Source: a virus (lineage: Duplodnaviria; Heunggongvirae; Uroviricota; Caudoviricetes). Taken from it: a stretch of DNA of 50,850 nt. The translations under genes and the position numbers were made by a program. Shown piece after piece: positions 3,284 through 50,850 of the stretch; position 1 is the stretch's first letter, and each line of letters opens with the position of its first letter. The stretch lies in the IMG/VR virus record IMGVR_UViG_2526164600_000002, one strand, 5' to 3'. The notes beneath the pieces are model-generated. The model was not told the origin of the DNA. It made no database searches and was given only the letters and a program-made list of their open reading frames with translations.

Positions 3284-4148
3284 CTAAGCGAGGTTCTTGT
3301 TTTCAAATTGTTCCGGACTGAGGCCGCCACACCAACTGTGCCGCCGCCACCGATTGTAATCACATTCGATATAATTAAACACCGTTGCCCGCATTATTTC
3401 CCGGCTGATAAAGTGTTCTCCATGGATACATTCCACTTTCAGCGAATGAAAGAAGCTTTCCACGCAGGCATTATCGTAGCAGCAACCTTTTGCGCTCATA
3501 CTTCCACGCAGATTATGCCGCTTCAGTTGCGCCTGATAATCTGCTGAACAGTACTGGCCTCCTCGGTCCGTGTGAACGATAACGTTCCGGGGCCTCTTAC
3601 GCCGCCACAGCGCCATCTGCAGGGCATCGCAGGCCAGTTGCGCCGTCATGCGTGGCGACATTGACCAGCCAATAACGGCACGTGACCACAGGTCAATGAC
3701 CACTGCCAGATACAGCCAGCCTTCATCTGTACGTAAGTACGTGATGTCTCCTGCCCACTTCTGGTTCGGGCCACTGGCGTAAAAATCCTGCTCCAACAGA
3801 TTTTCTGACACAGGCAGGCCGTGTGCGCGGTAGCTGACCGGGCTGAACTTCCGGGAGGCCTTTGCCCTCAGTCCCTGACGGCGCAGGCTTGCCGCCACGG
3901 TTTTACGTTAAGGGGTAACCCTGAGCACGCAGTTCATCCGTCAGGCGTGGGGCACCGTAACGCTGTTTTGACCGGGTAAAAGCCGCGAGGACAACGCTGT
4001 CGCAGTGTTGGCGGAACTGCTGACGCGTGCTTATCCTTGTCCGCCGCTGACACCACGTATACCAGCCGCTGCGGGCCACCCGGAGCACGCGGCACATTGC
4101 TTTGATGCTGAACTCAGCCTGATGTTTTTCAATAAAGACATACTTCAT
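3284..4148 (-). pseudogene. insF: IS3 transposase orfB (InsF), reading frame broken near codon 80 (ORFs 3903..4148 and 3284..3898 in different frames)
   Basis: ORF track shows two adjacent ORFs that together match InsF (DDE motif region DITYL...HTDRGGQY...); break lies in short T and A runs near 3899-3905. Confidence 0.7.
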
Positions 4149-4566: not shown

Positions 4567-5142
4567 CTACGGCAGTGCTGGCCATTCAATATCCTGTGAA
4601 GTTGACGTATCAACACGGTTCAGCAATACCCGATACTTTTTCCATGCTTCCAGCAACGAGATTTCTTCCTCCGTTGCAATTTCCAGATCTGCAGCATCCT
4701 GAAGCGGCGCAATATGCTCACTGGCTACCTGCATCAGGTTGTTTTTTATTTCTTCCGCCTCCCGGATCCGGAACAGTTTTTCTGCTTCCGTATCCTTCAC
4801 CCAGGCTGTGCCGTTCCACTTCTGAAACTCTCCTTCCGGCGATAACCAGGTAACATTTTCCGGTAACGGACCGAGTTCAGAAATAAATAACGCGTCGCCG
4901 GAAGCCACGTCATAAACCGTTTTACCCCGATGATCTTCAACGAGATGCCACGATGACTCATCACTGTTGAAAACAGCCACGAAGCCTGCCGGAATATCTG
5001 GCGGTGCAATATCGGTACTGTTTGCTGGCAGACCTGTATGAGGCGGAATATATGCATCACCTTCACCAATAAATTCATTAGTTCCGGCCAGCAGATTATA
5101 AATTTTTATGGTCCGTGGTTGTTCACTCATTCTGAATGCCAT
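4567..5142 (-). CDS. tfa: Tail fibre assembly protein (Tfa)
   Basis: ORF track 191 aa; follows stf with overlapping stop/start; lambda-like Tfa family. Confidence 0.85.
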
Positions 5143-9403: not shown

Positions 9404-12400
9404 TCAGCTGATGCTGATGCCTGCGGTGGCTTTCTTCATCACCACAACCAGCAAATCGCTGATACTTGCTGTGGGATACCAGTCATTTACCAGCCATGCT
9501 GACACCGAAAACTCCAGCGTCATGTGGCCGTGACCAGCTGGCATATCAATAACACCACTGTAAATCAGCGTATTATCCAGCGCGGTACGGTTATAAATTT
9601 CAGCACCATTTTTCTTCACTATCAGGCGGCATGACGAATAAATATCGTTATTCTCCCGCTCATGTTTAGCGCCGCAGAATGCCACCGCCGGAATAACAAT
9701 TTGCCTGTCAAAAGGCTGATCGTCATAAATCCTGACGGTAATGGTCCCTGATGGCCACCGCTCCGGTGCCCGGGAGTCCCGCGGGAAAGCCTTACCCACT
9801 GTTTTGACAATATCGCCTTCAATCTGGTTGGCTGACAGTTTCCCTTTAATCTGACAGTTCTCATTTATCGTAACGTTGTTGAGCGTCCCGGAGTTCGCAT
9901 TCACACTGCCACTGATATCTGCATTTTTAGCGGTCAACTTTCCGTCCGGTGTCAGGGAAAATGCCGGAGGATTACCGCCGCTGGTAATGGTGGGAGCCGT
10001 CAGATATTTCAGGAACACTTCATTCATGAATATCTGATCACCCTGACCAACAAACATCGGTTTTGTGTTGCCATTTGCAGGATTAATCATCGCAATCCTG
10101 TCTGCCGCCAGCAGCACCTGACTCTGCATGCCGTCGGGGGTGTTCTCAATACCGGCACCGATACCCGCGATATAAAGGCGTCCGTCCTGCATCTGCTGCA
10201 GCTTCACAGCCCACATGCTGTTCAGATTATTATTTGTATCAACCTGAACCTTCTGTATCTGCTGGATCGCTGCACTCTGGTCTTCCAGTTTCTTATTGAC
10301 GGTCTGTGTGATTTCATTGCTGACATCCGTAATGGATGTCCTGATTTCAGCCAGGTCAGGCGCAAGCTGACCGTTATCAATCTGCGTCCACAGCTCCTGA
10401 GCCAGATGGGTTTTCCCTATCTCGCCTTTGAAAAAATCCAGATAGCCGGATGCGTCATCACTCGGCTGACCAACAGCCTCCACGAATGCCGATTTGCCAA
10501 CGGTGTTCACACTGCGAACGTAAAAATAATAATTATGGCCCGGCCTGATATTGATACTGGCGGCTATCCAGTACAGCGCCGTGCCAAGATAGCGTGCTGT
10601 GGTTTCAACCTGCCTGATATCCGCAATCCGCTTTTCCGAGAACCAGAACTCAAACTGTACCGTCGGATCATAAACCGCAAGATGCGGCGTGGCGGTTATC
10701 TGAAAATAGCCCGGCGTCAGCTCAATCCGCGACGGCGCTGCCGGTGCGGCAATCCGGAACGATACCGACGCCGGATCGCCCTGCTGCCCCCACGCATTTA
10801 CTGCCCGGACTGTCAGCCTGTAGTTCCCCAGAGCCAGTTGTGTGAAGCGGTAAGTGGTTTCCGTCGTCCGGGCCGTGCTGACCAGCCGCTCACTGCCGTC
10901 ATCCGCTGCCACGGTCAGGCGAAGCATGAAACTCACGCCCTTCACCACCTTCGGCGTGTCCCAGCGGGCCAGTACCTGATACTCCCCGCTGTCTGCGGTG
11001 ACTTCGGCAGTCAGGTGATGCACTGCTGGCGGCGTGACACCATTCACCGTGCCGCTCTGGTCGCCGTCAAAGTGCGCCCCGTTATCCACGATAGCTTCTT
11101 TTTCCGGTACATGCTGCACGGCGGTGATGGCATACGTGCCGTCGTCGTTCTCACGGATACTCACGCAGCGGAACAGGCGCTGGCGCAGCGTCGGCAGCTT
11201 CAGCCCCCATACGCTGTATCCGGCAACGCCGTCAGGAACACGGCTCACTTTTACCTTCACGCCGTCGGTGACGGACTGGACCTCCACGCTGACCGGATTG
11301 CCACTTCCGTCAACCAGGCTTATCAGCGTGGTACCGGAGGATGGCAGCGTGATTTCACGGTCGAGCGTCAGCGTCCGGGTCTGGCTGTTCACCGCCAGCA
11401 CGCGCCCGCCGGTGCTGATCCCCGCATAGTCATCATCGCAGATTTCAATGACATCGCCCGGCACATGGCGAAGCCCTTCCGCACCCACGCTGAAGTCCAC
11501 GGTCTGCGTTTCCAGCAGTTCTGTTTTAATCAGCCACAGCCCGGCGCGGTGCGCCTGCCCCCGGCTGGTACAGCCAAAGGCATCCATCTTCGTGACGTTA
11601 CGACCGTAACGGAGAATGGCCTGCGTATCTTCAACAAGCTCTGTCGCCGTCTCCCAGCCGTTATCCGGGTCAATCCAGTTCACCTCAACGGCATTATGAC
11701 GGTCCTTCAGGGCACTGAAGCTGTAGCGGAACGGCGCGCCATCATCCGGCATCACCACATTACTGCGGTTATAGGTCCACACCTTATCCGACGGTCGGTC
11801 CTGCACGAACGTCAGCGTCTGCCCGTTCCATACCGGCATACAGCGCATCGCCGAGCAGAAATCACTGAGAACATCCCACGCCTTGCGCTGTGTGGTCAGG
11901 TAGGCATTACAGGTGATGCGCGGCTCCGTGCCACCAAAGCCATCCGGCACCGACTGGTCGCAATTCTGGCCGATGACATACAGCGCCCATTTGTCCACAT
12001 CCGCCGCACCGAGACGCTTCCCCATGCCGTAGCGCGGATGGGTCAGCATATCCCACAGACACCAGGCCATGTTGTTGCTGTATGCTGGCTTAAACGTTCC
12101 GTCCCAGATACCGCTGTATTGCCGCGTCTGCGGGTTATAGTTCGACGGCACCTGCAGAATGCGCCCGCGAAGATGATAATTACGGCTCACCTGCTGGCTG
12201 CCGAACTGTTCCGAGTCCACCTGCACGCCGACCAGTGCCGTGTTCGGGTAGCACTGTTTCACATCGATGATTTCGGTGTATGACGACCAGAGCGTTTTGT
12301 TCTGCAGCTGGTCTGTGGTGCTGTCCGGCGTCATTCTGCGCATCCGGATATTAAACGGGCGCGGCGGCAGGTTATCCACCACCACCGAGGCCAGATACTG

Positions 12401-21202: not shown

Positions 21203-21243
21203 GGACTCCTCCACAGAGAGAAAATGGCCCCGAAGGGCCATGA

Positions 21244-22269
21244 TTACGCCAGTTGTACGGACACGAACGCATCAGGGTCAGCCAGCAGCATCAGCGGTGC
21301 TGACTGAATCATGGTGAACTCACGCGCCGGATCGCCGGTGGTCACCCAGTTTTTCGGGTAGCGGGCAGAGGCGTTAATACCTTCGCGCTGTGCGTCCGCA
21401 TCCTGAATGCAGCCATAGGTGCGCAGACCGCGTGCCTGAGTGTTCCCCAGCACCATCGTGTTGTCCGGCAGGAAGTTCTTTTTGACGTCGTTTTCCACGT
21501 ACTGTCCGGAATACACGACGATCGCCGTATCGCCATACATCCCCTTATAGGACACCGCTTCGCCCAGGTCTTTTACCGCTGTCTCCAGCTCGGAATTAGA
21601 GCCGCGACGGGTATCCAGCTTCTCCTTGACGGCTTTGAAGGAACGGAACAGCGCCCAGCCTTTCGGATCAAACACGATGATATTCACCACACCGCTGGCG
21701 TTCAGCGCGTAGGCTTCGATATCGTCGGTCGGGTCATACGTGGACTTGTCACGCTTGCTCCACTCCGTACCGCCGGACTGTGTGATGTTGTTCGCCGCAC
21801 TGCGGCCCATATCCACCTCAACCGGATCGAAGGCTTCACCGGTCATGGTGTATTTGCCCTTAAGCACAGCAGAAACTGCCTGCATCTCTTCGACCTGAGC
21901 AATGGCCAGCTCTTCGTCTCGCATGTTCTGCATGATGATGCGACGGCGGCGGTAAGCCGGGTCCGCCAGATTCTGCGGATCTTCATCCGGCAGGCGACGC
22001 AGGGTCATCTGCGGATTCACCTCATGCTTGGGTTTGACATATCCCGGCGTAAATTCAGAGGTGGAGCCGCCACGGGAACGGATAACCTCACCGGAAACAA
22101 TCGGCGAAACGTACAGCGCCATGTTTACCAGTCCCGGAATTTGTGAGAGATAGACTTTCTCCGTGGTGAAGGGATAGCTCTCACGGAAAAAGAGACGCAG
22201 AAACAGCGGATCAAACTTAAATTTCTGCTCATTTGCCGCCAGCAGCTGGGCGGTTGTGTACATCGACAT
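21244..22269 (-). CDS. E: Major capsid protein E
   Basis: ORF track 341 aa (lambda gpE length). Confidence 0.9.
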   Translation of the reverse strand: MSMYTTAQLLAANEQKFKFDPLFLRLFFRESYPFTTEKVYLSQIPGLVNMALYVSPIVSGEVIRSRGGSTSEFTPGYVKPKHEVNPQMTLRRLPDEDPQNLADPAYRRRRIIMQNMRDEELAIAQVEEMQAVSAVLKGKYTMTGEAFDPVEVDMGRSAANNITQSGGTEWSKRDKSTYDPTDDIEAYALNASGVVNIIVFDPKGWALFRSFKAVKEKLDTRRGSNSELETAVKDLGEAVSYKGMYGDTAIVVYSGQYVENDVKKNFLPDNTMVLGNTQARGLRTYGCIQDADAQREGINASARYPKNWVTTGDPAREFTMIQSAPLMLLADPDAFVSVQLA

Positions 22270-22323
22270 AAAAAAATCCCGTAAAAAAGCCGCACAGGCG
22301 GCCTTTAGTGATGAAGGGTAAGG

Positions 22324-22656
22324 TTAAACGATGCTGATTGCCGTTCCGGCAAACGCGGTCCGTTTTTTCGTCTCGTCGCTGGCAGCCTCCGGCCAGAGCA
22401 CATCCTCATAACGGAACGTGCCGGACTTGTAGAACGTCAGCGTGGTGCTGGTCTGGTCAGCATCAACCGCCAGAATGCCAACGGCAGTACCGTCGGTGGT
22501 GCCATCCCACGCAACCAGCTTACGGGTGGAGGTGTCCAGCATCAGCGGGGTCATTGCAGGCGCTTTCGCACTCAATCCGCCGGGCGCGGTTGCCGTATGT
22601 GCCGGGTCACTGTTGCCCAGCGGCTGGTAATGGGTAAAGGTTTCTTTGCTCGTCAT
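22324..22656 (-). CDS. D: Capsid decoration protein D (start at MTSKETF inside ORF 22324..22662)
   Basis: ORF track; 110 aa from third codon. Confidence 0.9.
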
Positions 22657-22665
22657 AAACATCCC

Positions 22666-23965
22666 TTACACTGGTGTGTTCAGCAAATCGTTAACGGCAT
22701 CAGATGCCGGGTTACCTGCAGCCAGTGGTGCCGGTGCCCCCTGCATCAGACGATCCAGCGCAGTGTCACTGCGCGCCTGTGCACTCTGTGGTGCAGCTGC
22801 CAGAATGCGGCGGGCCGTTTCCACGGTCATACCGGGGGTTTCGGCCAGCACACGTGCCTGTTCTTCGCGTCCGTGAGCTTCCTCACAGTTGAGGATCCCC
22901 ATAATGCGGCTGTTTTCTGCCGCAACCGCAGCGGTGATCTGCGCGTTCACGTCCGGCTGCGCCGCGCTGGCGTTTTCGCCCTCCGTCGCTTGCACCACGT
23001 CAGTAACGTCAGCCTGCGAAGCAGTGGCTGAAACAGTTGTTGATTGAGTCTCTTTGGTCATTCGCCCTCCTGAGAGACGGGATTTACGTGCATCCAGTGC
23101 ATCACGCATAACGGTGATCGCATCGGTGCTGTTGACAAGTTCATCAGCCAGTCCGGCATCAATGGCCTCCTGACCGCTGTACATTGCAGCCTCGGTATCC
23201 AGCACAGCCTGCACGGACAGGCCGGTATATGCCGACACCTTCTGCGCAAACATCCGGCGGGTTGCATCCATCCGGGACTGCAGTGTCTCCCGGACATCAC
23301 CCGGTAGATGGCTGTAGGGGTTGCCATCCACCTTATGGCTGCCGCTGTAAATCAGCGTGATTTCCACGCCCTGTTTCTCCAGCGCAGCGCCGTAATTACT
23401 GTGAGCCATCATGACGCCGATGGAGCCTGTCCGGGCGGTCTGCGTGACCAGACGCCGGGAGGCGGCGCTGGCAAGCAGCTGACCTGCACTGCAGTTCATG
23501 TCGTTGGCCAGCGCCCATACCGGCTTTATGTCACGCACACGGGCGATGATGTCAGCACAGTCAAATGCTCCCGCCACCATCCCGCCCGGTGTGTCCATAT
23601 CGAGCAGAATGCCGTCCACCATCGGATCGCTGGCAGCCTGTTGCAGACGAGCGATAATGCCGTTGTAACCGGTCATTCCCGAATACGGCTGCAGCGCCCG
23701 CGTCCGGCTGACCAGCGTACCGGACACCGGCAGCACGGCGATGCCGTTCATGACCTGATAACTGCGGGCCTGTCGTGGTCCGTCATCATCACCGGATAAC
23801 GCCAGCGCCGCGGGTGCCTCTCCGGCAGTCAGGCTATCGCCGGATACTGCATCCGTCAGGCGACTGATCCCAAGCTGGCCTGCAAGCGCACAAAAGAAAA
23901 CCCGCGCATAGGCGGGTTCAAGCATCAGCGGCTCATTAAAAGCCATGCTGGCAATATGCGGGAGA

Positions 23966-23985
<20 letters not shown>
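22666..23985 (-). CDS. C: Capsid assembly protease/scaffold C (GTG start at VTAELRN; scaffold Nu3 is encoded in-frame within its 3' part)
   Basis: ORF track 22666..24120; 439 aa from the VTAELRNLPHIASMAFNEPL start; 20-bp overlap with B as in lambda. Confidence 0.85.
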
Positions 23986-27665
<3,680 letters not shown>

Positions 27666-27691
<26 letters not shown>

Positions 27692-28211
27692 TCAGCAACC
27701 CCGGTATCAGTTCATCCAGCGCGGCTGCTTTGTTCATGGCTTTGATGATATCCCGTTTCAGGAAATCAACATGTCGGTTTTCCAGTTCCGGAAAACGCCG
27801 CTGCACCGACAGGGGGATCCCGTCGAGAATACTGGCAATTTCACCTGCGATCCGCGACAGCACGAAAGTACAGAATGCGGTTTCCACCACTTCAGCGGAG
27901 TCTCTGGCATTTTTCAGCTCCTGTGCGTCGGCCTGCGCACGCGTAAGTCGATGGCGTTCGTACTCAATAGTCCCTGGCTGGAGATCTGTCTCGCTGGCCT
28001 GCCGCAGTTCTTCAACTTCCCGGCGCAGCTTTTCGTTCTCAATTTCAGCATCCCTTTCGGCATACCATCTTATAACGGCGGCAGAGTCATAAAGCACCTC
28101 ATTACCCTTGCCACCGCCTCGCAGAACGGGCATTCCCTGTTCCTGCCAGTTCTGAATGGTACGGATACTCGCACCGAAAATGTCAGCCAGCTGCTTTTTG
28201 TTGACTTCCAT
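27666..28211 (-). CDS. nu1: Terminase small subunit Nu1
   Basis: ORF track 181 aa; N-terminus MEVNKKQLADIFGASIRTIQNWQEQGMP as lambda Nu1. Confidence 0.9.
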
Positions 28212-28388
28212 TGTTCATTCCACGGCCAAAAACAGAGAAAGGAAACGACAGAGGCCCAAAAGCTCGTTTTCAGCACCTGTCGTTTCCTTTCTTTTCAGGG
28301 GGTATTTTAAATAAAAACATTAAGTTACGACGAAGAAGAACGGAAATGCCTTAAACCGGAAAATTTTCATAAATAGCGAAAACCCGCG

Positions 28389-28400
28389 AGGTCGCCGCCC
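28389..28400 (-). other. cosN cohesive-end site (12-nt GGGCGGCGACCT on minus strand); cosB lies between it and Nu1, cosQ on the other side
   Basis: Plus strand AGGTCGCCGCCC at 28389-28400; flanking sequence matches my recollection of lambda left and right ends. Confidence 0.85.
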
Positions 28401-28599
28401 CGTAACCTGTCGGATCGCCGGAAAGGACCCGCAAAATGATAATAATTATCATCTGCATGTCACAACGTGCATCTACGCCATCAAACCACGTCAAATAATC
28501 AATTATGACGCAGATATCGTATTAATTGATCTGCATCAACTTAACGTAAAAACAACTTCAGACAATACAAATCAGCGACACTGAATACGGGACAACCTC

Positions 28600-28833
28600 A
28601 TGTCAACGAAGAACAGAACCCGCAGAACAACAACCCGCAACATCCGCTTTCCTAACCAAATGATTGAACAAATTAACATCGCTCTTGAGCAAAAAGGGTC
28701 CGGGAATTTCTCAGCCTGGGTCATTGAAGCCTGCCGCCGGAGACTGTGCTCAGAAAAAAGAGTTTCTTCTGAAGCAAACAAAGAAAAGAGTGACATTACT
28801 GAATTGCTCAGAAAACAGGTCAGACCAGATTGA
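28600..28833 (+). CDS. Hypothetical small protein, possible ribbon-helix-helix DNA-binding fold
   Basis: ORF track 77 aa; basic N-terminus then NIRFPNQMIEQINIALEQKGSGNFSAWVIEACRRRL resembling RHH (Arc/CopG-like) proteins. Confidence 0.4.
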   Translation: MSTKNRTRRTTTRNIRFPNQMIEQINIALEQKGSGNFSAWVIEACRRRLCSEKRVSSEANKEKSDITELLRKQVRPD

Positions 28834-28875
28834 AGCAATTTAGATAATCGTGCAGACTACGCCCCCTCATATCAC

Positions 28876-29301
28876 ATGGAAGGTTTATCTATGGATCAGG
28901 TAGTCATTTTTAAACAAATATTTGATAAAGTTCGAAACGATTTAAACTATCAATGGTTTTATTCTGAGCTAAAACGTCACAATGTCTCACATTACATTTA
29001 CTATTTAGCCACAGAGAATGTTCATATTGTATTAAAAAATGATAATACAGTGTTATTAAAGGGCCTAAAAAACATTGTGTCTGTCAAATTTTCAAAGGAT
29101 AGGCATCTTATAGAAACGACCTCTAATAAGCTGAAATCCAGAGAGATCACATTTCAGGAATACAGAAGAAACCTTGCTAAAGCAGGAGTTTTTCGGTGGG
29201 TTACAAATATCCACGAACAAAAAAGATATTACTATACCTTTGATAATTCATTACTATTTACTGAAAGCATCCAGAAAACTACACAGATCTTACCACGCTA
29301 A
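28876..29301 (+). CDS. ydfO: YdfO-like protein (DUF1398 family)
   Basis: ORF track 141 aa; position after the packaging genes as in K-12 Qin; family assignment from recollection. Confidence 0.55.
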
Positions 29302-29452
29302 ACCATAACGTCCGGCTTCTCTCACTCCTGAGCCGGACTGCATTGGTTTAATAAAAACCATCAACAATTGTGATTTAGATATTCGGAACCATTCAAATAT
29401 AACAAAACCCCGTAAAAACGAGGTTTATGGATAAATTTTATTATTGAATACA

Positions 29453-29628
29453 TCAGATTAAATTAATCTTGACATCATAGCTTTCAAGACCCGTCATTTT
29501 TTCCCGTGCGGTAAACTGAATACTGGTAACTTCTTTCCCGGTCTTTTTCTTAAGTTCAATAATTTTTTTGTTATATATTCAGAAATATCTGCTTCTGCTT
29601 TTGTTTTTAAGTTTTCAATATTCATCAT
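29453..29628 (-). pseudogene. gnsB: Gns-family small protein (GnsB-like) with apparent 1-bp frameshift in an A7 run
   Basis: Manual translation: N-terminal frame MMNIENLKTKAEADISEYITKK, then second frame IIELKKKTGKEVTSIQFTAREKMTGLESYDVKINLI; junction at T7 run 29563-29569. Confidence 0.55.
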
Positions 29629-29796
29629 TTCCTCTTTTAGTCTGTTATGACTTTCCAGTTACACAGTAAGTCGATTATATGGTGCAAACGTGTAAAAGAT
29701 AAGATGAAACATCGCAATAATCAACATACGATAGTCTAAATTTTACACAAACAGACAAAGAGAATTTTCCTGAATTATCAATGCAATAGCATCAAA

Positions 29797-30069
29797 TCAA
29801 CTCAAGAGCCTTATTGCTGCTTCCAGAATTTCTTCTGAAGTAACATGTCGATCCGCGGCTACATAAATGACTTTATGATCTCCGGTCAGAGATGGAAACC
29901 CTGCGGCCATTACAGTAAGGTGTGTTTTTTCGCCATTTGGATATTCACGCATGATGGTGTTAACTCCAGTCATCGCTGGCACTACCACTGCTGGTTCAGA
30001 GTTAAAAAAAACTATGATTTTTTTCATGATGTTACCGTAGTATGTGAGTATCCATCGAATAGACACCAA
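29797..30069 (-). CDS. Hypothetical protein (position of ynfN in Qin; a 51-aa version would start at MREYPNGEK, about 29797..29952)
   Basis: ORF track 90 aa; no recognisable motif; start uncertain. Confidence 0.35.
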   Translation of the reverse strand: MVSIRWILTYYGNIMKKIIVFFNSEPAVVVPAMTGVNTIMREYPNGEKTHLTVMAAGFPSLTGDHKVIYVAADRHVTSEEILEAAIRLLS

Positions 30070-30298
30070 GCCAAAAAGCTCCCGAAGGAGCCTTCATTTT
30101 CACTTTTTTAAATCCAACGACAGACGGCTGGCATTTAAGTATTGTGAAATATTATCAAATGTAATCATCATTGATTTACAAAAGATACATTTTGCCCCGA
30201 AAGGATTCATGTCAGAAACATCAAAAGATGATGTTCTATACTGGGAACCATGACAACACGGGCATCTAAAGTGAATATGGTTTGTAATATTGTCTACC

Positions 30299-30511
30299 TC
30301 AAAGCGCCACTACATGAACAGCGGCAGGACCTTTAGGTCCGTTCTCAATACCAAATTCAACTTCCTGATTCTCAGTTAATGTTTTGAAATCGTTGCTCTG
30401 AATTGCTGAGAAATGGACAAACACATCTTTGCTGCCATCTTTCGGCGTGATGAAACCAAAACCTTTTTCAGGGTTAAACCATTTCACTAAACCAGTCATT
30501 TTGTTAGACAT
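30299..30511 (-). CDS. cspI: Cold shock protein CspI (CspA family, 70 aa)
   Basis: ORF track; [27 protein letters not shown] cold-shock domain; long AT-rich 5' leader upstream. Confidence 0.9.
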
Positions 30512-30873
30512 AATTATTACCTTTTGAAGAAATTAGCCCTTGGGCAGAATGGTCCGAAAAAAAATATCAGAGAGAAAAACCAACAAGGAAATCTCAAGAG
30601 GTACAAATAATAAAATTATAACAATGACTGCTTCAGATAAATTTGTAACAAACCAGAACACCATTAACGCATGATTAACCACCCATAGCAAGGATTACTT
30701 TTGTAAAGAAAAACACAGCAATGAAAGAATAGCTTTATTTATTAATAAAACGTGTCATTCTGATTAAGACCTTTTATCTTACCCTTAAGATTTCAGGAAT
30801 TTTGGCTCATGGAAGAGTCCTTTTTATTTAAATTTTACATTCCGCGATGTAAATGTTCCGATTTAATATTACC

Positions 30874-31897
<1,024 letters not shown>

Positions 31898-31901
<4 letters not shown>

Positions 31902-32209
31902 AGATATTTATGATGAGGACGCTCGTGCTTATTGGCAGGATTTTCAATCTTAAAGGAGTACTGATGCTGCAGATAAGACTCAACTTTTTCTGACAATTTT
32001 TCTGCTACTTCCAGGAAGACTTGCCGGACGCTCCTTCTGGCTGCTGCCTCATAAAACTCCAGCGCAGCTCCTTCAACACGGTCCATGGCGACATCCAGGT
32101 CAAAAATTTCACCGTCAAAGCGTTCTTTGTCCTGTAAGGCTACAGTTACCGTAACTTTATTCTCAAAATTACGGACTCCTTTCACAACCAGTTCATAGTC
32201 TTGAGTCAT
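31898..32209 (-). CDS. ydfR: YdfR-like protein (DUF1327), between holin and endolysin
   Basis: ORF track 103 aa; position as in Qin. Confidence 0.6.
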
Positions 32210-32213
32210 TGGA

Positions 32214-32429
32214 TTACTCTCCTCTCGCAGCCTTACGCCTGTCTTCTTTAATCTTGAAATAAAGATTTGTCAGATACGTCAGCAGGCCAAAAACCAGGCT
32301 ACCCAGCACACCGATTGCAGCCCACTGTGACGGAGTTACTTTATCGAGTAACTGCAATGCCCAGAAACCAGCATTACCCGCCGATGTGCCATAGGCAACA
32401 CCTGTTGTTAACTTATCCATTGATTTCAT
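32214..32429 (-). CDS. essQ: Holin S (phage 21 S-type pinholin, dual-start MKSM)
   Basis: ORF 32214..32504; from [18 protein letters not shown]... gives 71 aa with two TM segments and charged C-terminus. Confidence 0.8.
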
Positions 32430-32596
32430 ATCCTCACCCCGATGTACACGGATGGTGCAATATGTTTGAAAAGATCGGAGTCTACGGGGTAGTTTTGACA
32501 GCACACGTTGTTCTCAACGGCGCTAAAAAACATACACATTAAAAATGTGGGTAATTATTTTGAAAGAAAATCATATATAAAATAATAATACGAGAA

Positions 32597-32818
32597 ATGT
32601 TTTCATATTTAGTGTACTGTATACGGCCATTTATACAGGAAATGCCTATGTCAGAACGTAAAGACTCAAAATCACGCCGTAATTATCTCGTTAAATGTTC
32701 CTGCCCAAACTGCACCCAAGAGTCAGAACACAGTTTTTCAAGAGTACAAAAAGGTGCCCTTTTGATCTGCCCTCATTGCAACAAAGTATTCCAGACAAAT
32801 CTTAAAGCTGTAGCCTGA
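32597..32818 (+). CDS. Hypothetical small zinc-ribbon protein (CPNC...CPHC)
   Basis: ORF track 73 aa; two CxxC pairs; probable start at an internal Met. Confidence 0.35.
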   Translation: MFSYLVYCIRPFIQEMPMSERKDSKSRRNYLVKCSCPNCTQESEHSFSRVQKGALLICPHCNKVFQTNLKAVA

Positions 32819-33180
32819 TTGATTTTATTAGTAACAAGTATTTTTATATTTTAATAATATATTTAAAGCAGATAATAAAAAACCCGCCTGAGCGGGTTTG
32901 AGATTGTGGTGCTTTTTGTGGGAGTCATCCACTTACGCACTTTGTTTTGCGATGCCAGCAGTTAGCTTCTGCTGTGAAACTATTCATGCAGCAAACCTGC
33001 ACTTCACCACAATGGTTAGCATACTTTTCCTGATTAAGATTTTGCCAAATATGCTGGCCATTGTTTCATGTATTGGACCTCCTTACTTTTTATTAAAGAG
33101 ATCCAATATTCACTACTCTGTCCGTATCTCTACTCAGGCATCAGCCTTCTTCGTTATCGTATACAGACGAGCGATGAATT

Positions 33181-33396
33181 TTAATCAGTAATGATGACAT
33201 TTACTGCTGCAGGACCTTTAGCACCACTCTCTATAGAGAAGGTAACCTTTTGACCTTCAAATAAGGTTCGATAATTATCATTCTGAATCGCAGAAAAATG
33301 CACAAACACATCTTTACTACCATCAACAGGAGAAATAAAGCCGAAACCTTTATCAGCGTTAAACCATTTTACTAAACCAGTCATTTTATTTGACAT
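33181..33396 (-). CDS. cspB: Cold shock protein CspB (71 aa)
   Basis: ORF track; CspA-family cold-shock domain. Confidence 0.9.
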
Positions 33397-33706
33397 TCTA
33401 CATTCCTTAACTTGAGCCTTTCGGCATAAATGGTTTGCATAACAGAAACGACTTCGTACTTAATTGGAGAGACTCAAAGAAGGAATAAGTGAATAACACC
33501 TGAAATGAGAACTGCTTTAGTAAACTACTTCGTATATCGTCTGTTCTTCAAACCGACGCAGTCATTAACTCATAGTTGAACATATGAAGCAATGTTTATT
33601 TTAGACATCCAGCCACCTTCAATCCTATCAAAAAAGTAGTTTTCTCCAGGAACGTGTGTATGGTGCACCAGGTTATCAGTATTAAGGAGTTTTTCTGTCC
33701 CCTAAA

Positions 33707-33907
33707 ATGACAGGAATTGTCAAAAACTTTGACGGCAAAAGCGGCAAGGGTCTTATCACCCCATCCGATGGTCGTATCGATGTCCAGCTTCATGTTTCAG
33801 CGCTCAATCTCCGCGATGCAGAAGAAATTACCACCGGATTACGCGTGGAATTTTACCGGATAAATGGTCTGCGTGGCCCTTCAGCTGCCAATGTTTACCT
33901 TTCATGA
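33707..33907 (+). CDS. cspF: Cold shock protein CspF-like (start may lie 4 codons upstream at a non-ATG codon)
   Basis: ORF track 66 aa; divergent from cspB as in Qin. Confidence 0.8.
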
Positions 33908-34196
33908 GCTATATTAAAGCTTTAATTTCAGGCCCCATCGGATCACACATGGAGAGTTTTTATGAATAACCCCGTCTGTCTTGATGACTGGTTGATTGGC
34001 TTTAAAATCTTATGCTGTACTTTGGCCGTAATAGCTCTGCTAATAATATAATAAGCAGACTCATTGTGTTTAGGGACATTGTACTGGAAGAAAACATTTT
34101 AAACATCAGGCAAATAACCAAGTCACCAGCTAAATAATAAGTTAACAGACATGAGTCCCGGGATGAGATTCAACATTACCATTGCCCCATTTAAAG

Positions 34197-34228
34197 CACA
34201 AAACCCGCTCATCAGCGGGTTTTCTACT
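34197..34228. terminator. Hairpin AAACCCGC-TCATCA-GCGGGTTT flanked by T-runs on both strands; candidate tR' (late) and cspF terminator
   Basis: Inverted repeat at 34201-34222 with T-rich tracts on each side. Confidence 0.5.
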
Positions 34229-34261
34229 TTTTCTTAACGTCGGGTATACAAAGCCCATCGT

Positions 34262-34297
34262 TGAAAAAATTTTATCCATATTTTTTGAAAAATGCAA
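34262..34297 (-). promoter_or_regulatory. Candidate late promoter PR' (minus strand -35 TTGCAT, 17-bp spacer, -10 TAAAAT) just downstream of Q
   Basis: Plus-strand ATGCAA at 34292-34297 and ATTTTA at 34269-34274; followed about 50 nt later by the hairpin terminator. Confidence 0.45.
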
Positions 34298-34328
34298 ACA
34301 TCATGTCGCCATCTTCAGCAAAAATCAT

Positions 34329-35081
34329 TTATCTCGTCACCTTCCTCAATTGCGCTTCCGCGTATGCTTCTTCCTGCCAGCACTTTGTTACCAGTTTACC
34401 AATGACGTCCGCATACCCCTTATACCACTGATAATCGGTCAGGTCTGGTACCAGCTTCTGGACATGACGTCGTGCCAGCGTGGTCGGTAAACGACTAAAC
34501 CGGTTTCCATTACAACGCCCACAAATCTTATATACCGGTACGCCATGAAACCGGGTTCTTTTTTCATCCAGAACAATCCCTTTACCCTTACACCCTCTGC
34601 ACGCTGTGCTGGCTTCGCCCTTACCATGGCAATGCTGACATAGTTCCTTCACCCATTCTTCCTTGATTACAGATTCCCCGCGTCTGTAGTGTTTCACCAC
34701 TTCGCGCAATACATTATAAAATCCCGTACCTGAACAATGCTCACAGCGAGCCTTACTTGCCGCAGACCTGGAGTAATCAGCAAAGGCAAAACTCACGAGG
34801 TAAGGAATAATCTGTAACCGGATTTCTTCACTCAATTTGTTCAATGTCGGGTTATCCAGTGCCATCGCGTAATTTAGCAGGCCTTCAATCGCAAACTGAG
34901 GGTCCTGAACACCAACTTTTGCCAGAAATAAGGCCAACCCAAGTGGTGCTTTCGACTGCACCATCCCCTGCGCTGCCATTACATCCGTAATTGTTAAACA
35001 ACCGGTGCCTGTCGCTGGAGCGTCATCGCTCAATTTTGGAGATTTTGGGGAGTAATATTTTGGTAAGGCTTCAAGGTTCAT
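34329..35081 (-). CDS. quuQ: Late-gene antiterminator Q (zinc-finger CxxC..CxxC)
   Basis: ORF 34329..35111; 250 aa from MNLEALPK; Cys-rich motifs CEHCSGTG...CQHCHGKG...CRGCKGKG...CGRC. Confidence 0.85.
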   Translation of the reverse strand: MNLEALPKYYSPKSPKLSDDAPATGTGCLTITDVMAAQGMVQSKAPLGLALFLAKVGVQDPQFAIEGLLNYAMALDNPTLNKLSEEIRLQIIPYLVSFAFADYSRSAASKARCEHCSGTGFYNVLREVVKHYRRGESVIKEEWVKELCQHCHGKGEASTACRGCKGKGIVLDEKRTRFHGVPVYKICGRCNGNRFSRLPTTLARRHVQKLVPDLTDYQWYKGYADVIGKLVTKCWQEEAYAEAQLRKVTR

Positions 35082-35094
35082 GCTCGTTCTCCAC

Positions 35095-36144
35095 TTACGC
35101 CAGTACGCCAATTGCCAGCGCGCGATCGATAAAACGAAATATCAGCTCCAGTTGGGAGCCATACTTATCTTCAAATGCCACTGTATCCGTATGCAGCTCG
35201 TTGTGATGCTTTCTGCACAAAGGCAACACAAAGAGATCATGTGCTTTTGTTCCCATTCCGCCCTGCCCGTGACCAATCAGATGATGCGGATCGTCGGCTG
35301 GCATACCGCAGCAAGCACACGGCTGTGTCTTAACCCAACGTGTGTATTTCTCCTTAACCCAGCGGCGACGTTTAGGCAGCTTCATGAAAGATTCCGGAGA
35401 CTCTGGATCAACGGTGATGCTTACCACCGTCTTTTCCTGTGGTGATTTTTGTTGCTGGTGGGCGTAAGGCAACGGTGCAAGATTTTTTGTGCGTTGTTTC
35501 AATATGCTGGTGGCGGTCTGCTCTCCCGGTACGATGTCGCTTTCGCGGTACACCGAGCAGATTTTTTCCGCTGGTAATCCCAGCGAACGACGCGATACAG
35601 CCTCAGGTAGTGCATCCACCACCTGATTGCAGACCGTCCACCAGGATAATTCAGCCAAAGATAATTCCCGCTCCTGCGTACCGCTTATTGCGTGACGGAT
35701 GACGTCAATCACCCATGCTGTCAGATTTTGTTGAGCAAGCAGCTCCAGTGATTCCGATGTCTGGTCACGCAGTTGGTTGTCGCAGTGCCAGCACAACACC
35801 ATTGCGCCGGTACCATAACGGTGAATGACTGTTTCAGTGTGATGGTAATCGCCATTAGGCCACTGGCAGGATGTAACATGACGTAATAGCCAGTCGGACA
35901 ATGCGCCAACGCCGCCAGCAGCACGAATCACCCGTTCGTTACTAAAAAACGGCAGCAATGTTTTGTCTTCCGCCAGCGGCTGGCGAACGGCAGGAACGAC
36001 TCCGGATGGCAGATTACGCATGCTTTTTGGTTCCGGTTCCACCAGCACTCGAGGATTATGAAATATCTGTATGGATTCACGGCCCGGCTTAAGGACCACC
36101 AGCCCAAGCTCAGGCACCAGAACAGGTCTAAGTAATACCCGCAC
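35095..36144 (-). CDS. ydfU: YdfU-like protein (DUF968) with C-terminal HNH-like nuclease motif
   Basis: ORF 35095..36183; GTG start at codon 14 gives 349 aa; CCGMPADDPHHLIGHG...CRKHHNELH motif. Confidence 0.7.
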   Translation of the reverse strand: MRVLLRPVLVPELGLVVLKPGRESIQIFHNPRVLVEPEPKSMRNLPSGVVPAVRQPLAEDKTLLPFFSNERVIRAAGGVGALSDWLLRHVTSCQWPNGDYHHTETVIHRYGTGAMVLCWHCDNQLRDQTSESLELLAQQNLTAWVIDVIRHAISGTQERELSLAELSWWTVCNQVVDALPEAVSRRSLGLPAEKICSVYRESDIVPGEQTATSILKQRTKNLAPLPYAHQQQKSPQEKTVVSITVDPESPESFMKLPKRRRWVKEKYTRWVKTQPCACCGMPADDPHHLIGHGQGGMGTKAHDLFVLPLCRKHHNELHTDTVAFEDKYGSQLELIFRFIDRALAIGVLA

Positions 36145-40354: not shown

Positions 40355-40729
40355 GAAAAATCCCCCAGAGAATTGTCTGGGGACATTTTAGAATGGTTCA
40401 AAGGGGACATTACAGCTTGGTGTTAACAATAGCCTGCTTCTCCGTGCCTTTCGGCACGTAAGAGGCTAACCTACATGTGTCTAGCATGAAATTGGCCTCA
40501 GATTAATGTTAAGCGTCTTGCAGGACGCGTAATGTTAACTGGGGCTTTTCTCTATCTGCCGTTGGTGTCCATGCCCGAGGCAGATAGCCTCAAGCACCCG
40601 CAGTCATTCTACTTAACTAAGATTTCCCCGCAAACCGTTTTTGTCCAGCACAGTAAATATCCAACTAAACCAATGGAGTTCGCTGTATTTACCGCCAGTA
40701 TTCAATGCACATGACCGCCATGAACACCC

Positions 40730-46044: not shown

Positions 46045-46102
46045 TTTCTGGTGACGTTTGGCGGTATCAGTTTTACTCCGTGACTGCTCTGCCGCCCTTT
46101 TT
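46045..46102 (+). ncRNA. dicF: DicF small regulatory RNA (ftsZ-targeting), ending in intrinsic terminator GCCGCCCTTTTT
   Basis: Sequence TTTCTGGTGACGTTTGGCGGTATCAGTTTTACTCCGTGACTGCTCTGCCGCCCTTTTT recognised; lies between ydfC and dicB. Confidence 0.85.
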
Positions 46103-49536: not shown

Positions 49537-49570
49537 CTAAAAGTCACACTAACTAATGAGAGAAGTTGAA

Positions 49571-50850
49571 ATGAAATATCCGACAGGCGTGGAAAACCAT
49601 GGAGGGAAATTACGTATCTGGTTTGTTTATAAAGACGTAAGAGTCAGGGAAAATCTGGGGGTTCCTGACACAGCAAAAACAGGCGCGTTGCAGGTGAACT
49701 ACGCTCCTCTGTTTGTTACGCAATAAAAACTGGTGTTTTCGACTATGCAAAACAGTTTCCCTCCTCACGCAATCTGGAAAAATTTGGTGAGGCCCGACAA
49801 GATTTAACCATAAAAGAACTGGCTGAAAAATTTCTGGCACTGAAAGAAACTGAAGTCGCCAAAACATCACTCAACACATACCGTGCCGTCATCAAAAATA
49901 TCCTGAGCATAATCGGTGAAAAAAATCTTGCCTCATCGATTAATAAAGAAAAATTACTGGAGGTTCGTAAAGAGTTACTGACTGGATACCAGATCCCCAA
50001 AAGTAACTATATTGTTACACAACCAGGGAGATCGGCTGTAACTGTAAATAATTACATGACAAATCTTAACGCCGTGTTCCAGTTTGGTGTTGATAACGGT
50101 TACCTGGCAGATAATCCGTTTAAGGGGATCTCGCCATTAAAGGAATCAAGAACCATTCCGGATCCTCTTTCGCGGGAAGAATTTATCCGTCTTATCGATG
50201 CGTGCAGAAATCAGCAAGCAAAAAATTTATGGTGTGTTTCTGTTTATACTGGAGTTCGCCCTGGTGAGCTGTGTGCACTTGGATGGGAGGACATAGATCT
50301 GAAAAATGGAACAATGATGATCAGGAGAAATTTAGCAAAAGACCGTTTCACGGTACCAAAAACACAGGCGGGAACCAATCGGGTCATTCATCTTATTAAG
50401 CCAGCAATCGACGCTCTCCGGAGTCAGATGACATTAACGAGACTGAGCAAAGAGCATATCATTGATGTTCACCTCAGAGAGTATGGCAGAACAGAAAAAC
50501 AAAAATGCACCTTTGTTTTTCAACCTGAAGTGTCAGCGAGAGTAAAAAATTATGGTGACCATTTTACCGTTGACTCAATAAGGCAGATGTGGGACGCAGC
50601 GATAAAACGTGCCGGACTCCGCCATCGAAAATCATATCAGTCGAGACATACTTATGCCTGCTGGTCGCTGACAGCTGGTGCTAACCCGGCATTTATAGCA
50701 AACCAGATGGGCCATGCAGATGCGCAAATGGTATTTCAGGTATACGGAAAATGGATGTCTGAAAACAATAATGCACAGGTAGCTTTGTTAAATACACAGT
50801 TAAGCGAGTTTGCCCCAACCATGCCCCATAACGAAGCAATGAAAAATTAA
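49571..50850 (+). pseudogene. intQ: Tyrosine integrase (IntQ-like) with apparent 1-bp frameshift after codon 35; remainder open in the shifted frame from about 49672 to the stop at the window end
   Basis: N-terminal frame MKYPTGVENHGGKLRIWF...GVPDTAK then stop at 49724; shifted frame reads NRRVAGELRSSVCYAIKTGVFDYAKQFP... into ORF 50056..50850 with catalytic R...HxxR...Y region; junction at A5 run 49675-49679. Confidence 0.8.

Follow-up and report, generated by a model that had tools for sequence, protein, structure and literature searches.

In the window (the whole 50,850-nucleotide stretch of DNA analyzed here), the gnsB gene of a Qin-type lambdoid prophage is recorded with a coding-strand run of seven A where intact alleles have eight. 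Judging from the pattern of deletions across the whole window, the missing base is probably an assembly artefact, a homopolymer under-call that turned A8 into A7. The true strain would then carry an intact gnsB.

The sequence-only reading had placed a Gns-family gene on the minus strand at 29453-29628, encoded in two frames that switch at a T7 run, and both the gene and the position of the switch were borne out by the sequence and its translation. The run is the only one of at least seven T in the region. The features of the locus are as follows.

29453..29625, minus strand: gnsB coding region (PF08178) with a 1-nt deletion; the RefSeq start is at the second ATG, and an alternative in-frame ATG lies at 29626-29628.
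29563..29569: frameshift site, T7 on the plus strand and A7 on the coding strand; T8 in genomes S51 and N1286, intact alleles having 8 bases; the frame 0 heptamer is A_AAA_AAA.
29494..29628, minus strand: shortened frame 0 ORF of 44 aa (43 from the second ATG), with 21-22 GnsB residues and then the tail LLNLRKRPGKKLPVFSLPHGKK; the same 43/44-aa products are found in public databases.
29631..29636, minus strand: Shine-Dalgarno-like AAGAGG, read from the sequence, 5 nt upstream of the second ATG (29625) and just 2 nt from the first.

The minus strand reads ATGATGAATATT and later ACA AAA AAA TTA (ATG ATG AAT ATT ... ATA ACA AAA AAA TTA TTG). Frame 0 is translated as MMNIENLKTKAEADISEYITKK, after which it runs out of frame into an unrelated tail and stops, and the -1 frame resumes as IIELKKKTGKEVTSIQFTAREKMTGLESYDVKINLI and ends with a stop at 29453. 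As recorded, the gene therefore has no uninterrupted ORF of ~57 aa, frame 0 giving 43/44 aa, and the break falls after codon 21 of the 57-aa protein. When one A was inserted to restore A8, the DNA from the second ATG to the stop was 100% identical to gnsB of S51, and its product was the 57-aa protein WP_001019606.1 of S51 and N1286. The joined translation of the two frames matched the Pfam family PF08178 (GnsAB_toxin) over profile positions 1-54 of 54 with E = 3.3e-35 and 120.2 bits (the curated cut-off being 27 bits), and was aligned with GnsA of PDB 4XO2 over residues 1-56 with E = 5e-20. Similarity to Gns proteins, on which the earlier claim depended, is thus significant, and by these alignments it is not due to chance.

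The gene order cspI-ynfQ-ynfR-ynfN-gnsB, followed by ydfO, is that of a Qin-type lambdoid prophage and is annotated alike in ER1709, 300709, S51, and N1286. Given this conserved synteny and the 100% identity after addition of one A, the locus is, by sequence comparison, gnsB itself and not a new gnsB-like gene; the family assignment of the sequence-only reading held and can be made more specific. Nor is the gene unannotated in public records. The same allele is called a "frameshifted" GnsA/GnsB pseudogene by PGAP, and its 43-aa product has been deposited as "protein GnsB"; on these records neither the gene nor the frameshifted form is new. The surrounding features were placed as follows.

28891..29301, plus strand: ydfO (DUF1398), the convergent downstream neighbor.
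29405..29426, minus strand: hairpin resembling an intrinsic terminator and then a T-rich tail, just downstream of gnsB.
29797..30027, minus strand: ynfN, the upstream neighbor, an intact 76-aa T8 allele.
30299..30511, minus strand: cspI, which leads the cold-shock cluster that gnsB closes.
30272-30657: cspA-type thermoregulator RNA, spanning cspI.

No Rfam RNA family overlaps gnsB, and Pfam has no family for YnfN. Elsewhere in the window, four Rfam matches reached the gathering score, all of them ordinary Qin-prophage content.

4601-4799, minus strand: IS009.
33134-33557, minus strand: a second cspA thermoregulator (cspB).
40428-40599, minus strand: sok antitoxin RNA adjoining hokD.
46046-46097, plus strand: DicF.

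The evidence for an under-call comes from comparison of the window with its closest genomes, S51 and N1286, over 38-49 kb. A few SNPs separate the window from these two genomes, and just two of them (3563 and 39753) were private to the window, together with eight one-base indels. All eight indels were deletions within A/T runs, with no insertions.

3904: T5 to T4, in the IS3 transposase.
3909: A3 to A2, in the IS3 transposase.
22282: A7 to A6, intergenic, between the capsid and decoration genes.
25966: T7 to T6, near the 3' end of the terminase large subunit gene (25724-27691, minus strand), where read-through lengthens the product from 641 to 655 aa.
29562: T8 to T7, in gnsB.
32840: T6 to T5, intergenic.
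40731: A7 to A6, intergenic.
49674: A6 to A5, in the integrase gene (~49570-50850, plus strand), broken relative to S51 into ORFs 49556-49726 and 50056-50850.

The genes for the terminase large subunit, the integrase, and the IS3 transposase are intact in the relatives and broken by these deletions in the window, which confirmed the earlier claim that other genes here are also frameshifted at homopolymers. Between S51 and N1286 there are three SNPs and no indels over 36.6 kb. A 20,001-base query from the window spanned 20,005 bases in four relatives and 20,006 in two. When runs were sorted by length, the shortened share was 0.1% of 3-mers, 0.7% of 5-mers, 1.6% of 6-mers, 27% of 7-mers, and 25% of 8-mers. 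The two deletions in the IS3 transposase stand 5 nt apart, in the same IS3 copy as the T/A SNP at 3563, and this double deletion was present in none of 12,902 IS3 copies from complete E. coli genomes; no other single feature of the window points as strongly to an assembly error.

In some types of sequencing and assembly, wrong homopolymer lengths are the commonest residual error (PMC8812927). The deletion pattern described above bears the signature of systematic under-calling at homopolymers. The number of homopolymer frameshifts in the window argues for an assembly artefact rather than biology. Two stretches of the window, 23494-35625 and 21224-32191, match the draft contig AIHK01000014.1 (GCA_000250415.2) with 100% identity, and the window very likely derives from that contig. 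Another draft with a similar WGS accession prefix, AIFV01000014.1, has eight A/T-homopolymer deletions in 9.2 kb.

In order to place the A7 tract among natural alleles, a 73-base probe centered on the run was compared with 5,426 complete E. coli genomes. A7 was found as an exact match in 41 records, and A8 as a one-gap match in about 1,530-1,535 records, including K-12 MG1655; A7 thus makes up ~2.6% of the gene-carrying complete genomes (41 of ~1,576 near-identical copies). An A9 probe had four exact matches and A10 had one. With a phase-variable (contingency) locus in mind, tract lengths were compared between strains: they run from A7 to A10, but 97% are A8. Within a collection of 15 billion proteins, 2,217 index blocks held the 43-aa A7 product and 58,140 held intact GnsB (A7 at ~3.7%). 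The allele occurs in a K-12-like Qin prophage, in an S51-like background, and in a prophage with a different packaging module (two loci). It was also recovered in a short-read contig assembled with SPAdes at 89x, where it was the sole 1-bp difference from the A8 reference 300709 over 3.7 kb. PGAP names A7 copies "GnsA/GnsB family addiction module toxin, frameshifted". A7 is consequently a known, recurrent, and partly genuine natural allele.

An A7 copy at 12025-12150 in strain VE-V11-M (NZ_AP027978.1, L007) was handled differently by PGAP, which gives a 41-aa "GnsA/GnsB family" protein (WP_349812768.1) beginning at an internal start in the second frame, and no pseudogene. In the same strain, the nearby flxA, rzpQ, and pinQ are also frameshifted.

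Two of the other shortened tracts likewise have natural counterparts, and the proposal that all eight deletions are unique to the window was rejected, only the IS3 double deletion being so. At 22282, A6 is common as a natural polymorphism (279 of 3,021 records). For the terminase tract, T6 and the same 655-aa product were present in a few complete genomes (6 records listed at 100% identity, band count 7, of 3,211), and also in independent short-read contigs with 0.1-4% divergence. Beside gnsB, what looks like a real homopolymer polymorphism affects ynfN, which is T8 in the window and T7 in 417 records, including MG1655. PGAP flags the T7 form as frameshifted in ER1709; a second error in that genome was considered and rejected, T7 being the normal K-12 state. 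Given such T6, A6, and T7 alleles elsewhere, the homopolymer tracts of these prophages also mutate naturally and are not subject to error alone; they are hotspots of natural mutation as well as of error.

A further intergenic tract near essD-ynfU (for example L005, position 9078) is T6 in the window, as it is in S51 and N1286, but T7 in 300709, ER1709, RM10042, and AZ155. Many genomes share this length polymorphism, which appears to be real.

It is against this background that a real A7 in the sequenced strain was weighed. Here a replication-slippage deletion in A8 would have inactivated gnsB, a dispensable prophage gene that would now be a recent pseudogene, and the window would only contribute a further example of a null allele that is common for this non-essential gene. 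The recurrence of A7 in several prophage backgrounds, its presence in short-read (Illumina) assemblies, the natural variation of this tract and of ynfN, and the natural occurrence of A6 at 22282 and of the T6 terminase allele all speak for this explanation. However, the closest relatives of the window all have A8, and with two private SNPs well under one real indel would be expected, where eight were observed, all of them deletions. The gnsB site also shares its signature with the seven other deletions, including the IS3 variant seen in no other copy, and a genuine null allele in this strain is therefore judged unlikely. All eight deletions would be real if the strain were a mismatch-repair-deficient mutator, which is very improbable. 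Loss of mismatch repair strongly increases indels in mononucleotide runs, and mismatch-repair-deficient E. coli accumulated 30,061 substitutions and 5,324 indels, or ~15% indels (PMC8510543). With indels at ~15%, at least 8 indels among 10 changes have P = 9e-6, and 8 deletions out of 8 have P = 0.004 under equal odds; the mutator lineage was rejected on this indel-to-SNP ratio (P ~9e-6) and on the all-deletion direction. Mismatch-repair loss favors transitions, and the presence of a T/A transversion among the two private SNPs also counts against a mutator.

The run itself might instead be read as a recoding site, in a regulated two-frame design where A7 yields full-length GnsB through programmed -1 ribosomal frameshifting or through transcriptional insertion of an A. 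The heptamer A_AAA_AAA (in ACA AAA AAA TTA) is in the correct phase, and the product of a -1 slip would be exactly wild-type GnsB. In the literature, A_AA.A_AA.A is described as frameshifting at >0.1% in E. coli even where no stimulator is present (PMC4066793), the rate for C-AAA-AAA was 25-60% when overexpressed (PMC1851650), and single-base transcriptional insertions cluster in A/T runs and increase with run length (PMC5574713). Against a programmed design, the 83 nt after the run fold less stably than shuffled controls and form no stimulatory structure (MFE -9.9 kcal/mol, shuffle mean -12.3 kcal/mol, z = +0.95), and no Shine-Dalgarno-like (GGAGG-like) element was found upstream of the slippery site. 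The two-frame layout is also not conserved, ~96-97% of alleles being in-frame A8, and AAAAAAA is generally avoided in E. coli genes. Programmed frameshifting or transcriptional slippage as a design was rejected as hardly credible, the heptamer lacking a stimulator and the layout being unconserved. A real A7 allele is nevertheless possibly not fully silent, with slippage at the run restoring the frame at a low level; given the in-phase heptamer, the published slippage rates, and the rise of A insertions with run length, it might leak some GnsB. By extension, A8 could be a slippage hotspot that repeatedly yields A7 "nulls" (~3-4%) still making some wild-type GnsB, by -1 slippage on the heptamer or by transcriptional insertion of an A, a "pseudo-pseudogene" for a toxin-like lipid modulator. 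The tract would then be a crude dose switch rather than a simple on/off lesion, and we regard this as a long shot.

With a homopolymer under-call as the preferred explanation, the value of the locus is mainly one of quality control, as the source assembly would have systematic A/T-homopolymer under-calls. No homopolymer frameshift in the window should hence be interpreted biologically before it has been confirmed at read level; until then all are suspect, those in gnsB, the terminase large subunit, the integrase, and the IS3 transposase included.

The functions at stake are known from the literature on the K-12 genes. When gnsA or gnsB is overexpressed, the content of unsaturated fatty acids goes up, and both fabA6(Ts) and the cold sensitivity of secG-null strains are suppressed; both genes also rescue the low-temperature growth of relA fadR mutants (PMC10607373; bioRxiv 10.1101/2024.03.27.586906). 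In the names that Pfam and PGAP give it, the GnsA/GnsB family is the toxin partner in a toxin-antitoxin module.

Among known systems, the nearest is E. coli GnsB itself (ydfY; GNSB_ECOLI, WP_001019606.1) of the Qin prophage, which has the same DNA once the A is restored, the same neighbors, and the same Pfam family; it has A8, whereas the window records A7. Its paralogue GnsA (yccL, PDB 4XO1/4XO2) has the same length, aligns over residues 1-56, and has the same overexpression phenotype, and is encoded at a separate chromosomal locus in the parallel cluster cspG-ymcF-ymcE-gnsA. At the site corresponding to TKKIIEL of GnsB, GnsA has AQKIAEL, and on these residues the same A8 run is unlikely to be present in gnsA. 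The PGAP frameshifted pseudogenes of ER1709, RM10042, and Ecol_AZ155 carry the identical A7 allele over 341 bases. In the complete genomes of RM10042 and Ecol_AZ155, however, A7 is the only homopolymer deletion in ~22.7 kb, as opposed to the eight in the window, and A7 may be real there. The window instead resembles draft and long-read bacterial assemblies, in which homopolymer errors are likewise 1-bp deletions in one direction, confined to A/T runs, steeply dependent on run length, and accompanied by the fragmentation of conserved genes (PMC8812927, PMC12007338).
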